A stretch of 63,855 bases of DNA, filler included, from Rhabdomonas costata (lineage: Eukaryota), in NCBI GenBank assembly GCA_019059605.1. It is 38 parts of 38 records of this genome, joined end to end, with 100 filler letters (N's around TTAATTAATTAA, not from the genome) between each part and the next. Parts side by side here need not be neighbours in the genome. Positions count along the whole stretch, not along the records: positions 55,544 to 57,125 come from JAHMHO010012628.1; 37 more parts are not named here. One strand, given 5' to 3'. The stretch's first letter is position 1. The number at the start of each line of letters is the position of its first letter. The notes beneath the pieces were generated by a model. The model was given only the letters and a program-made list of their open reading frames with translations. It had not been told where the DNA came from and made no database searches. A program made the position numbers and the translations under genes. Positions 54,760 through 63,466 of this stretch are shown here, piece after piece.

Positions 54760-55279
54760 GACCATGACCGCTGGTAGAGGGGAAAACTTCAGGGCGTCCA
54801 CCTCCATTGTAGTTGGTCAAGTAGCTGGGACTGCAGGCATTATAGTTGGTGGTTTCACTGATGTGAACGCATACTGAAAGGGGGCTGCTGTAGGCTGACC
54901 AACGTAGGTGACTCTTGGGGCTGGTCTCCATTGGATCCCTTAAAATTTCACATCCAATCTCGTAAGCGCCTTAATTGGTGACGTGGTTCTTCCTAGCATT
55001 TTTGTGAGCAAGCCAGGACTTCATGCCTTGCATGAAATCCAAAATCACGTTGGGTGTACGGAAGCGTTCCGGTAGGGCATTTGCGTATGTTTTGAACTTA
55101 GCTTTGTAGTCAGAGTAATCTCCGTTGTACATTTTAACATTGTGAGTTAGCTCGTAGATGAGTAGGTAGTGGTATTGCTTTGTTATGTAGTGCGCCTTTA
55201 GCATGTATGTGAACTGGTGCCATGAGGTGACGGTCTGCACGTTAGAAAATATGCCTCGTCCTGCGTCTCCAAAGGCCAT
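54760..55279 (-). mobile_element. gag: Ty3/Gypsy LTR retrotransposon Gag remnant
   Basis: SWHQFTYMLKAHY..LIYEL..NVKM..GDYSDYKAKFKTYANALP..VILDFMQGMK is a Retrotrans_gag capsid pattern. It is followed, after a frameshift, by the PTTMEVDA (PMExD) motif. Confidence 0.85.
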
Positions 55280-55819
55280 TTGTGTGCGCGGGTGGTTTCA
55301 AAAAATTTCTTCACCGTGGAAATCTGTAGTAAAAAAGCTGTATGCATAAACAAAACCATTCAAAATAAAGCCCTTTTCTTTCAATTTCGTTAACAAAACA
55401 ACAAAAAATGGACACTAAAAGTCGGTAAGAAAAACAAAAACACNNNNNNNNNNNNNNNNNNNNNNNNNNNNNNNNNNNNNNNNNNNNTTAATTAATTAAN
55501 NNNNNNNNNNNNNNNNNNNNNNNNNNNNNNNNNNNNNNNNNNNTTGTTTTTGTCTGCTTTTTATTTCAAACCCGTTTTGGGACACTTTGTAGGGTGTGAT
55601 GGTGAGGATGTTGGTTGTTGTACGGAATTTGGAGGTGGTATCAGTAGCTGAGAGCTCTTTTGCACAGCGTTCTTGAATGCTGGGCTGAACCTGAAGCTTC
55701 ATTGCACCCCCCCCCCTAACGAAAGGGTGTGCTTTGGGTCAACGGAAAGGTCCCTGTGCGTGAGGTCCATGCCACCCTCTTCTCTCCTCGCGACTGGGGC
55801 GCCCCCCGCCTCGCCTGAC

Positions 55820-57125
55820 CTGGGGCGGCTTGCGGTGCACACTGTGACCCACGACCTGCTGCGGAACTTCTGCCCCAGCTGGGACCCTGAAGGGAGATAC
55901 CTGTACTTCCTGAGCTCGCGGGAGTTCGAGCCGGTGTATGACACCCTGCTGTTTGGGCTAAGCTTCCCCGCAGGCACCCGACCCTACGTGGTGCTGCTGC
56001 AGCGCTCCACGCCTAACCCCTTCCTGGAGGAATTGCGGCCCCCAGACCGCGACGAGGACGATAGTGAGGAGGAGGAGGAGGAAGAGGACGTCGAGGAAAG
56101 CTCAGGTCTGCTTAAGCGTCTGGCGCCCAACGCTGATGTCGGGGGGGGGGAGACCTGTGCTTTGTCGGCAGGTGTGGAGGGTCTCTGCGTGGTTCTGTGC
56201 GGATCTCTTTGTTGTTCGCAAGGGGTTGCTGCCCGGTTGTCCTTCGCGGACACTTCACTGTGGGTGGTGGAATGGTGTGCACCAGGCGATTGCTTTCCTG
56301 TTGGGGCGTTTGGGAGCTCCGCTCAGCTACACGGCTTTTTTATAGTACCTTTGGCTTGTTTTCGGAGAACCTTAGCTCCAGTGGTGCTGCGGGTTGTTGA
56401 GCTTTGGCTATTGTGTGCATTTGCAGACGTGTGGGTGGTGGAGATTGACTTTGAGGGCATCCAGGACCGGGTGGTAGCCTTTCCGGTTAGTGCGGGTCGC
56501 TACTCCCGAATCTCCGGGTAGGCTTGCCTCGCTGCACGTGACTTTTCTCGCAGTGGCGTTTATGGAATGGTACCCGACGGAAATAGTATAGTTTGCTTTG
56601 GTGCCCCACCTCTGGTTGGACCCCTTCCAGCACCATACCAAGCTGTGCTCAAAGGTGTTTACGATGTTTACGACGGATGTTATGATAGTGAAGCAGCAGA
56701 TAGCGTTAAGGTTTTATAGTCTTGTTTATTGGGTATGGATGTACTTGGCGGGAATAATCTCGGGAAGTATCCGATTGCTTCGTCCACAAGACGGAATTAC
56801 AAAACGAAAGTCTAGATTGGCCTCCGGTCAATTCACTGTTACCCTTCCTTTTCAGGTTCCGGCTTATCCGGTTCGAAACCTATGCACATATAGAAAGATC
56901 GAAGGCCTTCTTTTGGCTTGGCGTCCCCTTAGATTGAGCTGCACGTCTCTACAAAGCCGACCAGTGGGCGTAGCTCGTGCCAACCAAGGATTTCAAGCCG
57001 TTCTCAACTCACTGACAGTCTTCCTGTTTTGCATTTTGTGGGCAAACCTCAGGCTGAAGGATGACCGTGTGGTATACTTGGTGCACCCCCTGGCCCCTGG
57101 GAAGAGCGTGGGGTTTGCCCACACA
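55820..57125 (+). CDS. tri: Tricorn protease (peptidase S41) beta-propeller region, three exons
   Basis: Exon ending 56105 (PSWDPEGRYLYFLSSREFEPVYDTLLFGLSFPAGTRPYVVLLQRSTPNPF), exon 56427-56517 (VEIDFEGIQDRVVAFPVSAGRYSRISG) and exon 57053-end. GT-AG introns with matching phases 1 and 2. Confidence 0.9.
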
Positions 57126-58907: not shown

Positions 58908-60428
58908 CTTCAGGCAGGGCTCGCGAGGCAAATCCAACATGCCAAGGGTGCGAATCCGCTCAAGCAGCTGGCGGTATTCTCCGAGATCCCCGAGTGGCTC
59001 CTTGAAAACTGGTCCAGTTCCCAGTAGTTGCTGTGCGAGGTGGCGTAGAGGCTCGAAGGCGCCTTTGCCCTGGAGAAAACCCACTATTACTCCCAGTGTA
59101 ACAGTGTCAAGGCGCACCTTGAGCTGAGGCAGCAGATCCAAGCCAACGCACATATTGGAGAGGTTCGTGGAAGGCCGGCTCAAAAGATTGTTGATCATAA
59201 GAACGCGTTGTTTGGGTTTGGTAACTTCGTCGAGTCGCTCGGGCTTGTCCAAAAGGTCGTTTTTCAGAAGCTCCTATAAAAAAGATCACACTCTCACGCC
59301 AATGTCTTCCGAGCCTCTCGCGCCTTCTCGAATGGAAGGAATGGAAGGACAGTCCGAGGACTAAGGCGGTTGAAGAGAAGGGTTGAAGAGGGTGACTCTT
59401 TATGTACGACCAATCAAAATAAGAAGAGCAAGAAAATGGGGAGGGGGGTGCTTTTTAGCAAGACAAAGAACTCGAGGAAAGTGAGTGAGGCCGGGGCAAT
59501 GCCGGGAAGTCCTTAATTTTACAGACAACTTCGAAAAAATTGAACTGATCTTTTCAGACGCCGACGTCGAAACTCTTGTGCGCCACCTAACCAGAGAATA
59601 AAAGCTGAAAATAGAAGGGAAAAAGTCCCTGCAGCAGCCCTTCATAATCGGGCTTTTGCTTCGAAAAGGCTAAAAATCATTCGGGAATGATGCTGGAGCG
59701 CAAACCAAACAAAAACATTTTCCCTCGGGCTGGTGCATGGTGTGAATCGATAAATGACGCACTAAGGTGGGTGTCAGTCATACCATTGCCTCGGTGAACT
59801 CGATGATGCGGCAGTTCAGAGCACAGGACAGTCCAATGAAGGTCCAGCGGTAGTCGCGGTATGCCTCTAGTGTCATCTCCCGGTCCCCCGCCGCCGCGAA
59901 CGCGTTGATGAAATTGTTGCAGGTCAGGTCGGGGTGATTGTCGTAACCAACAGAGCGCCGGGCCATCCATAGGGCATTCAATCCCTCTCGCTGCTGCTTA
60001 TGGTTTTGGCACTTGCCATACGCTCGACACAAGACTCTAAGCAGTTCAGCGCTATAAGTAATTCCAGAGATCTCGCGCTGAAGCTCTGCCAGCTTCTCTC
60101 CGTGATTGCCATTCACACAGTACGCTTTCACAAGGTCAGCGTAGTACCAGGTATCTACAGCAAGGCCAGTCTCCTTAACTTTGGAGCGTACCCACTCAAG
60201 GCCTTCCACGCAGTCCACCTCCTCGAGTCCATAGGCCTTAACCAGCGCAGTCAGAGCGTACAGGCCAAGGTCACCTGCTCTTTCAAGCGCATCACGGAGG
60301 TTTTGCACCTGGTCAAGAAAGGCGGCTCTGGAGCAAGGGCGAGGTGTACTTTTCTCCCAACGCTTCGTCAATTTTGAGAGCTTCTCAAGGGTTTCCTGAG
60401 TAGCCATTGTAAACAAATGCCGCTGCAT
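58908..60428 (-). CDS. Pentatricopeptide-repeat (PPR)-like protein, two exons
   Basis: Repeats LTALVKAYG, DTWYYADLVKAYC, LLRVLCRAYGKC and PDLTCNNFINAFAAAGD. Donor gtatga at about 59783; the next exon starts about 59273 after ttttttatag. Confidence 0.8.
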
Positions 60429-60491
60429 ATGCAGCGGCATTTGTTTACAATGGCTACTCAGGAAACCCTTGAGAAGCTCTCAAAATTGACG
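60366..60491. repeat. 126-bp perfect palindrome at the contig end (fold-back chimera)
   Basis: Centre at 60428/60429; the left arm is PPR coding sequence. Confidence 0.93.
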
Positions 60492-61603: not shown

Positions 61604-62561
61604 TTTTGTTCCCCTTGTTTTGTTGGAAGATTAGAGCAGTATGTGTGGGGTCATCCGGGACTCCTTCGGTTTGTCTTCGTGAGGTATCCCATCTTGTATT
61701 GTGGCGTACGTTTTCACTACATGTTCTTCTTTGATCTACTACTTCATATCATTGCTTCAGTTTTTTTTCCGCACCATGGACCGGAACAGATCCGAACGAA
61801 CGAACGAACGAAGGCTCCACTGTGGAGTACACTGAACCTCCCGAACGGAGGGAAGCTCTTGCGAGTGGAAGAACGACAGCTGATCCGCGGCATTATCGGC
61901 AAGCAACGACGCCACTACGGGCAGTCCTTACGATCACAATTCATCTCCCAGCGCACCACACGCAAGTAAGAACTGACCCCCAGGCAGAAGCCACTGCCTC
62001 AAATTTACCTTCAATCCCTTGTATTAGTAAAGCCCCGAAATCCGGTAAAAGCACTTGAAGGTATTCCCCTCCTCCGCTCGACTTTCGGCTTCCTCTTCTC
62101 GTCAGCTGGCCTCTGTGATGCCTCGAGTGCGGAAGTCCGTCTCTGCAGCCCAGGAGCTGGACCGCCACTGCTCNNNNNNNNNNNNNNNNNNNNNNNNNNN
62201 NNNNNNNNNNNNNNNNNTTAATTAATTAANNNNNNNNNNNNNNNNNNNNNNNNNNNNNNNNNNNNNNNNNNNNGTGGTGGGTGTGTTTGGGTGGGGGTGT
62301 TCTCACACATCGTGGTGAACCCTAAAACGTGAAGCCCTCGAAACCTTCCGCGAGGTACACCCAAAAGCAGCCACGGGCGCAGTGCAAAAAGCCACACTCT
62401 TCCCAGCGCAACATAACCTGTCCTCTAATTATCAAAATAGACATCAATCGGAGGCACTACTTTACAATCGGTAATGAGCGGTATCTTTCCACAAAACGGC
62501 CGAACTCGCGATAAGTTACACCACATGCACGACAAAAAGATCCAGGCAGCTGGACAGGGAC

Positions 62562-63466
62562 CTGCGATGTCTGAAAACATGATGCTGGCGGTCTTCCACT
62601 CCATTTTGCTCCTGCGGCTCATCGCCCCACTCAGCATCATCTTCACCACATCCCGGGGCACGTACTTCGCAAAAGCTCCAAGGCCACTGGAATAACCATT
62701 AGAGAAAAAACGTACACGCACAACCATAAATGAGCATACCCATTCCCATGAGCACGGAGAAACCAGAAAGACCTTGCTTTTGAGCTTCAGAACTCAGTAG
62801 GGAACCACGACAGACAGTTCATCACAACATACCCCGACACAGCAAAGCTGATAAAAACCCCCATCAAACTATCATATGCAATGGACGACGCTCAGCCTTC
62901 TGTAGGGTCAACAAAATATTATCTATGACCTTGACCCGGGGAGGGGATCACTGAATGATACTCGATGCACAATCTCAAGCCACACTAAATCGGCTGTTGG
63001 GGGGAAGGGAGGGAACTGATCGAGACGAGAAGGCCAACTTACCAAATATTTTATCATTTTTGATCATTTAAGTCTTTCGCGGGACCTGCAACGGGTTTGC
63101 GAGTGCGAATATGCGATTGCGTTGACAATTGGACGCAGTCCAACCGAGACCACGGACTTTTTGGTCACAAAACTTGCCGTTGCACGAGGAAGGGATGTGG
63201 GCACACCGTTCCATCGCATCGAAGGACTGCTGGCACCCACGCACCTCAGAGATCACTGAAGGCCGCGTGGCAACTGTTAAGGCCTCTCCCTCGAGCTCCA
63301 GCACCGCCAGCAGGCCCATCCCCTTCGCCAGCCGCTCCAGTGGCAGTGACAGCAGCAGCGCGATCCCCACGGCGCACGCAAAGGCCGCAGCGACCACCCC
63401 GACCAAGAGGCAAACGAGAAGAATATTTGTATGGCGGATCATCCGCGCCGCCTGGTGGTTCTTCGC
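62562..63466 (-). CDS. Receptor-type class III adenylate cyclase (TM-HAMP-cyclase)
   Basis: Exons 63466-63207 (TM helix, PLERLAKGM...SVISEVRGCQQSFDAME) and 62686-62562 (GLGAFAKYVPRDVV..ASIMFSDIAG), phase 2 junction. Confidence 0.93.

Follow-up and report, generated by a model that had tools for sequence, protein, structure and literature searches.

Can a eukaryote carry an intact tricorn protease in its nuclear genome? Subfamily 41B of the S41 peptidases has been described as the 'prokaryotic tricorn peptidase' (PMC5567314), tricorn as 'lost by the ancestral eukaryote' (PMC1586193), and TPP II as its eukaryotic counterpart (PMC2651629). The question is raised by a genomic contig of Rhabdomonas costata (assembly GCA_019059605.1), in which the initial annotation had recognized tricorn-like propeller motifs split by two GT-AG introns and had proposed a domesticated horizontal transfer.

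The stretch of DNA that we analyzed (the window, 63,855 nucleotides including filler) consists of 38 size-sorted, mutually unrelated contigs of 1578-1586 bases (~1.58 kb) from an assembly of 97 Mb in 104,289 contigs. Gene neighborhood is unreadable in the window because the N-linkers join unrelated contigs. The tricorn exons sit on the contig at 55544-57125 (G000:C12628; we use G000 as the label of the R. costata tricorn sequence in alignments and trees). In three sequencing runs of one sample, DNA contigs match the window sequence except at two single positions; they are DNA-like, with intron sequence included and no exon joints. At the contig start, ~45 bases (55544-55588) also match other contigs in two of these runs, and the third run diverges before 55587, which suggests a repeat or a mis-join at this end.

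Identification of the window exons as tricorn

Thermoplasma tricorn gave the top matches in a search of the PDB (E=1e-4), with a PD40 protein behind at 0.03. The best homologue of the first window exon (exon A) has an E-value of 5e-19 and 61% identity, and the S41 and tricorn-PDZ families are present in every one of the 32 homologues that scored, out of 96 candidates. Against a profile built from 28 bacterial tricorns, the window exons correspond to positions 450-583 (E=1.6e-47), part of the second, seven-bladed propeller. A stand-alone TolB/WD40 propeller is ruled out by the S41 and PDZ families in all 32 homologues and in exons found elsewhere in the assembly. The homology check proposed in the initial annotation thus placed tricorn first, with S41-bearing homologues, and no generic TolB/WD40 propeller ahead of it.

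Exon-intron structure of the contig

All three exons lie on the plus strand. The frame from 55652 to 56521 is open and contains the tricorn motifs quoted in the initial annotation. The core of exon A (55817-56105) encodes WDPEGRYLYFLS ... PNPF of the second (7-bladed) propeller, matches residues 492-552 of Thermoplasma tricorn, and includes an acidic run (56051-56098) in a variable loop preceding the IDFEG motif. It is followed by intron 1 (56106-56426; GT-AG, 321 nt, phase 1), exon B (56427-56517; 91 nt, IDFEGIQDR ... GRY), intron 2 (56518-57052; GT-AG, 535 nt, phase 2, with stops in all three frames) and exon C (57053-57113), which continues the propeller. The 3' end of exon C is uncertain, since the contig closes with a fold-back of ~20 nt in which 57037-57055 reappears inverted. 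At 56436, in exon B, one run's contig has a different base that would change Val to Glu, either an allele or an assembly error.

Both introns splice in frame, and the spliced exons A, B and C form a frame without stops, so that the motif split and the consistent intron phases claimed earlier hold. The tricorn profile score of exons A and B rises from 121.6 bits with intron 1 kept to 142.6 bits with it removed, and reaches 150.5 bits with exon C, which adds about 8 bits when spliced on and gives no score alone. Intron 1 is itself in frame and stop-free, a state found in 5.3% of 3000 dinucleotide shuffles, and inserts in this loop reach 142 aa in bacteria. We nevertheless set a coding insertion aside as the less likely reading: GC3 is 0.52 in intron 1 versus 0.83 in exon A, the profile score is lower when the segment is retained, and it would translate into a hydrophobic, Cys-rich stretch where the loops of homologues are charged instead. 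On this evidence 56106-56426 looks like an intron.

Exon A begins upstream of 55820, and there is no AG between 55765 and 55877. The best canonical acceptor is the AG at 55666-55667, which would make 55668-55816, where the frame is open, the 5' part of the exon, encoding the preceding propeller blade and a Pro/Ala-rich loop. The GC3 of this upstream stretch (0.71-0.72) favors coding. Its resemblance to tricorn homologues is weak, since 26 of 400 shuffles scored equally well, and an HMM test of it was negative (842 of 2000 shuffles equally good). On balance, we lean towards assigning 55668-55816 to exon A. There is no need to invoke a frameshift of one base near 55816, an AT-AC intron or another non-conventional one, because two of the run contigs show identical, gap-free sequence there and in-frame canonical acceptors exist upstream.

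The acidic insert pointed out in the initial annotation is present but not distinctive. In bacterial homologues the loop before IDFEG measures 23-142 aa and is acidic in some of them, with D/E runs of 6-8 in 4 of 59, so the acidic run is not a eukaryotic novelty; P0172, one of the database fragments described below, also has an acidic run at the equivalent place. The Caldilineaceae-type tricorns P0007, P0008 and L129 have acidic insertions of 121-142 aa in this loop, and these three, along with L096 and L116, have an extra insert directly before the exon A blade.

Catalytic and PDZ exons elsewhere in the assembly

Whole-protein searches of the assembly recovered seven more exons on four contigs: one exon (contig L004) and two exons (L003) of the first propeller, three exons of C1 and PDZ (L005), and one exon of C2 (L002). 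The resulting ten exons on five contigs do not overlap and follow the order of the profile; they cover 532 of the 1126 residues of the bacterial homologue P0009 and jointly score 441.7 bits (E=1.8e-135) against the tricorn profile. Three protein searches of the assembly gave a single match for each region. The exon boundaries examined are all GT or AG (17 of 17), and the complete introns, which outside the window contig measure 321, 587 and 335 nt, are all in frame (5 of 5). GT-AG introns in the window and on the other contigs rule out bacterial contamination, in agreement with the argument first made from the two introns of the window. C1 and PDZ share contig L005, and from the non-overlapping order of the remaining pieces we infer that the five contigs represent one tricorn gene.

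The L004 and L003 exons encode parts of the six-bladed N-terminal propeller with its WKxYxGG motif (profile 121-310; E=1e-14, 8e-18 and 1e-7). PDZ_Tricorn (PF14685) on L005 scores 35 bits, above the Pfam cut-off of 25; the exons also give weak matches to S41 and to Tricorn_C1 (PF14684, E=0.089 on a partial exon), and NCBIfam matched none of nine exons. L005 keeps ELGTSH, corresponding to T744-S745-H746 of Thermoplasma tricorn (numbering counted on the PDB alignment), and a gap-free alignment pairs the L002 exon with Thermoplasma residues 934-989 (E=1e-7), S965 and D966 being kept. We take S965 and H746 to be catalytic residues of the Thermoplasma enzyme. The PDZ exon and the exons with the catalytic Ser and His, which the initial annotation had proposed to look for in the assembly or in RNA-seq, were thus found in the assembly. 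The published tricorn pattern, G-S-X-G-D-X(15,25)-R-T-W-G-G, includes the nucleophile serine (PMC3511314). L002 contains GSDGD followed by 17 residues and RTWG; an intron interrupts the codon for the final Gly of the pattern, leaving just the first base of that codon in view.

In this fragmentary assembly we did not find the N-terminus (first ~120 residues), the regions around 310-445, 585-685 and 830-915, or the C-terminus; these parts, about half of the protein, may carry a lesion or a targeting signal. Searches with three bacterial protein segments gave two blanks and one doubtful match (L007, 7.9 bits), rejected as an N-terminal exon. Two degenerate patterns gave 20 and 17 matches, compared with 17 and 18 in controls, and none of the 37 loci scored as tricorn. 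Another candidate exon, L006 (E=0.09 in a protein search), had no profile match and was also rejected. Neither segments nor patterns recovered exons with RxNGGG and QPE, presumably the oxyanion loop and active-site glutamate of tricorn, an absence that carries no weight in so fragmentary an assembly.

The ten exons contain no stops or frameshifts. Of the 106 columns covered in G000 whose conservation across 85 prokaryotic relatives reaches 95% or more, G000 keeps 83, similar to the other five eukaryote-type sequences described below (59/70, 41/50, 19/25, 17/24 and 27/32). The 23 changed columns lie partly at exon edges and partly flanking the active site, where A984T, F991I, H993A and E766L (P0009 numbering) depart from the bacterial consensus. 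The L002 exon has Q at the position of D936, which varies in bacterial homologues too; this residue may shift specificity. The tricorn gene of R. costata is probably functional.

The gene resembles that of Thermoplasma (structures: PDB 1k32 and 1n6d-f) in domain order, in the position of exon A, in the GSDGD serine and in the TSH histidine motif. It differs in being nuclear and intron-split, in its low-complexity loops, in a two-residue insertion before WKxY, and in the Q at the D936 position.

Eukaryote-type relatives and the two-residue insertion

We searched the L004 exon against 1.84 billion representatives, which gave 1076 matches, 150 of them listed and most of these multi-repeat proteins. 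Among the matches listed, we inspected 11 with one or two matching stretches, and four share with G000 the two-residue insertion before WKxY: P0172/P0185, P0061, P0186 and P0191, all N-terminal halves and all deposited in ENA, JGI or Logan. With three of these fragments as queries, a metagenome scan yielded at least 64 loci from at least 647 pattern matches; 63 of these loci give long uninterrupted ORFs. The remaining locus, L070 (L070:1-1036), encodes a piece of tricorn, likewise from the N-terminal half, and is interrupted by four GT-AG introns (84-169 nt) whose removal keeps the reading frame.

The spacer before WKxY has nine residues in all six eukaryote-type rows (G000, L070, P0172, P0061, P0186 and P0191), a partly circular count because four of the rows were selected for the insertion and eukaryotic status is given by introns for G000 and L070 alone. 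In 85 prokaryotic rows of the same subfamily the spacer has 7 residues in 79, 8 in three, 9 in one (L098) and 10 in one, and one row lacks the motif. The eukaryote-type rows also share a Leu-Gly-Leu-Gly/Val-Gly stretch and similar sequence past WKxY. P0172/P0185 break off with Gly-Lys-Leu directly behind the acidic loop, the ending expected from reading through a phase-1 GTAAG donor, in which case an intron would lie near the position of intron 1 in the window. Inspection by eye showed no obvious signal peptide in P0172 or P0061 and, in P0186, a hydrophobic upstream stretch with an uncertain start.

Homologue searches for named eukaryotic tricorns returned none in 989 candidates and two in 8000, and we discarded both of the latter, one being a bacterial-type tricorn and the other a kinase fusion. 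On viral contigs, none of 83 pattern matches gave tricorn.

Phylogenetic placement

For the trees, rooted at the midpoint and with no archaeal sequence knowingly included, we used 133 near-full-length prokaryotic sequences (114 after a redundancy filter); prokaryotic sampling was limited to the best 80 of 750 matches. G000 and the other eukaryote-type rows fall inside one prokaryotic subfamily with support of 100/99, which makes a bacterial origin of the gene likely. The closest sequences are uncharacterized bacterial tricorns without signal peptides (P0002-P0024 and L072-L147, from Chloroflexota, Planctomycetota, Actinomycetota, Poribacteria and others). These are up to 61% identical to G000 over exon A and 44% over 267 columns, and some have the acidic loop, but 79 of 85 have the 7-residue spacer instead of 9. 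No sister bacterial lineage or donor was resolved in these trees.

Within the subfamily, the eukaryote-type rows group together weakly. A FastTree of 120 rows places the six eukaryote-type rows together, and a quick search on 46 hand-picked rows (473 columns) groups them with an SH-aLRT of 94. A careful search on the same 46 rows groups five of the six (59/89) and sets P0191 apart (38/60); all six come together in 36% of its bootstrap trees, and a single eukaryote-type clade is not rejected (p-AU 0.379). With L070 and P0191 left out (30 rows, 270 columns), the other four form a group at 93/52 that adjoins the long-branched P0012 (91/87). G000 thus falls with other eukaryote-type rows in four different analyses. 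Branches are long (0.99-1.04 for G000), G000 has an odd composition, and in path length its closest neighbors are the bacterial rows P0005 and P0009.

The horizontal transfer proposed in the initial annotation therefore stands in one part and is weakened in the other. A bacterial source is likely, but the gene is probably not private to R. costata: L070 and four probable eukaryotic fragments share the insertion and tend to group with it, so that we favor a shared, older and wider eukaryotic tricorn branch, to which L070 adds a second intron-split member.

Proposed function and alternative readings

Thermoplasma acidophilum tricorn, a member of S41 subfamily B (PMC5567314), is described as a hexamer of 720 kDa that has both trypsin-like and chymotrypsin-like activity (PMC2651629) and acts on 7-9-residue proteasome products (PMC12502532), its propeller guiding the substrate (PMC3808539). 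TPP II has a catalytic domain of the subtilisin type (PMC1586193) and no homology to the R. costata gene. Eukaryotic members of the S41 family are given as fungal S41 and the D1 protease CtpA, and the S41A C-terminal processing peptidases are tabulated with a Ser-Lys dyad (SK) (PMC5567314). The eukaryotic S41A peptidases share the catalytic family of the R. costata gene but lack tricorn propellers and C1, and have Ser-Lys in contrast to its His motif.

We consider it fairly probable that R. costata has a nuclear, spliced, full-length tricorn serving as a cytosolic, ATP-independent post-proteasome oligopeptidase and derived from a single old bacterial transfer. The full protein would comprise ~1100-1300 aa, with a 6-bladed propeller, a 7-bladed propeller, C1, PDZ and C2, of which the window exons would encode a piece of the second propeller and a surface loop. 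By homology to Thermoplasma tricorn, it would form a hexameric, self-compartmentalizing peptidase that needs no ATP; unfolded oligopeptides would enter via the propeller channel, the Ser-His center would cut them to di- to tetrapeptides, and aminopeptidases would finish the job. Channel entry and di- to tetrapeptide products are known features of tricorn, and the families of its cooperating aminopeptidases F1, F2 and F3 are general in eukaryotes, so their presence would be non-diagnostic. Judging from the subfamily and from related N-termini inspected by eye, the step would be cytosolic and follow the proteasome, a task usually ascribed to TPP II. A search of the assembly for the TPP II family, run without a positive control, gave no candidates. 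The gene would have entered eukaryotes once, long ago, from the signal-peptide-less bacterial subfamily, and would then have been inherited patchily or passed between eukaryotes, gaining introns.

This lineage could instead have obtained the same active enzyme on its own, the remaining eukaryote-type rows being independent transfers from unsampled insertion-bearing bacteria brought together by long-branch attraction. The separation of P0191 and poor support for the rest in the careful tree, the bacterial rows nearest by path, the limited prokaryotic sampling and the 9-residue spacer of bacterial L098 all speak for this account. We think it unlikely, since the insertion, the Leu-Gly-Leu-Gly/Val-Gly stretch and the sequence after WKxY are held in common, monophyly is not rejected, and G000 repeatedly joins the eukaryote-type rows. 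On a bolder reading, which we consider possible but less likely than not, tricorn did not simply disappear when eukaryotes arose: a single old lineage of the eukaryotic enzyme, perhaps dating back to LECA, would persist here and there among protists and algae, euglenids included, and would act after the proteasome as a second shredder beside or instead of TPP II.

Two further readings, both improbable in our view, concern what the protein does. An active tricorn could have a nutritional role, being secreted, vacuolar or organellar and degrading peptides from the medium. Such a role would fit the signal-like hydrophobic ends with which the bacterial tricorns L024, L029 and P0026 start, and the N-terminal exon that could decide the matter was not found in the assembly beyond the doubtful L007; G000, however, groups with a subfamily that starts directly at the GYY..P motif, and the N-termini of P0172 and P0061 also argue against a signal peptide. 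The gene could also be a decaying pseudogene or a catalytically weakened scaffold, as its long branch, the 23 changed conserved columns and the uncertain 5' end of exon A might indicate. Against decay stand the ten uninterrupted exons, the intact state of every splice site examined, the retention of TSH and GSDGD, and the GC3 bias that the exons keep. We therefore retain the reading of an active, cytosolic tricorn, as a probable one.

We found no account of a eukaryotic tricorn in the titles, abstract beginnings and passages covered by our literature search, which took in few subscription journals and bioRxiv supplements; none is described in the supplements of PMC8219788 and PMC7052976 or in the PMC6411480 passages that it covered. 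Sequence databases may carry automatic 'tricorn' labels on eukaryotic proteins. The chemistry of the enzyme is already known, and the new part is the eukaryotic, intron-split copy. A nuclear copy so rich in introns, its catalytic motifs intact, is hard to call contamination and anchors the eukaryotic branch. Two questions can thereby be put to the test: whether tricorn, and not TPP II, completes the breakdown of proteasome products in some eukaryotes, and whether the gene was retained from early eukaryotes or spread by transfer.

Other observations in the window

Many contigs of the window start with G/T-rich and end with C/A-rich low-complexity sequence, which has the look of a library artefact. 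A perfect 63-nt fold-back at 60366-60491 ends its contig and is probably an artefact. On the minus strand, 54983-55222 holds a retrotransposon gag fragment (PF03732, E=8e-5, slightly below the cut-off), and 59778-60479 is an open frame of 233 aa with no Pfam match and a helical look by eye. A short exon-like stretch at 62560-62691 (minus strand) likewise has no Pfam match; it bears a resemblance to the beginning of class III nucleotide cyclase domains.
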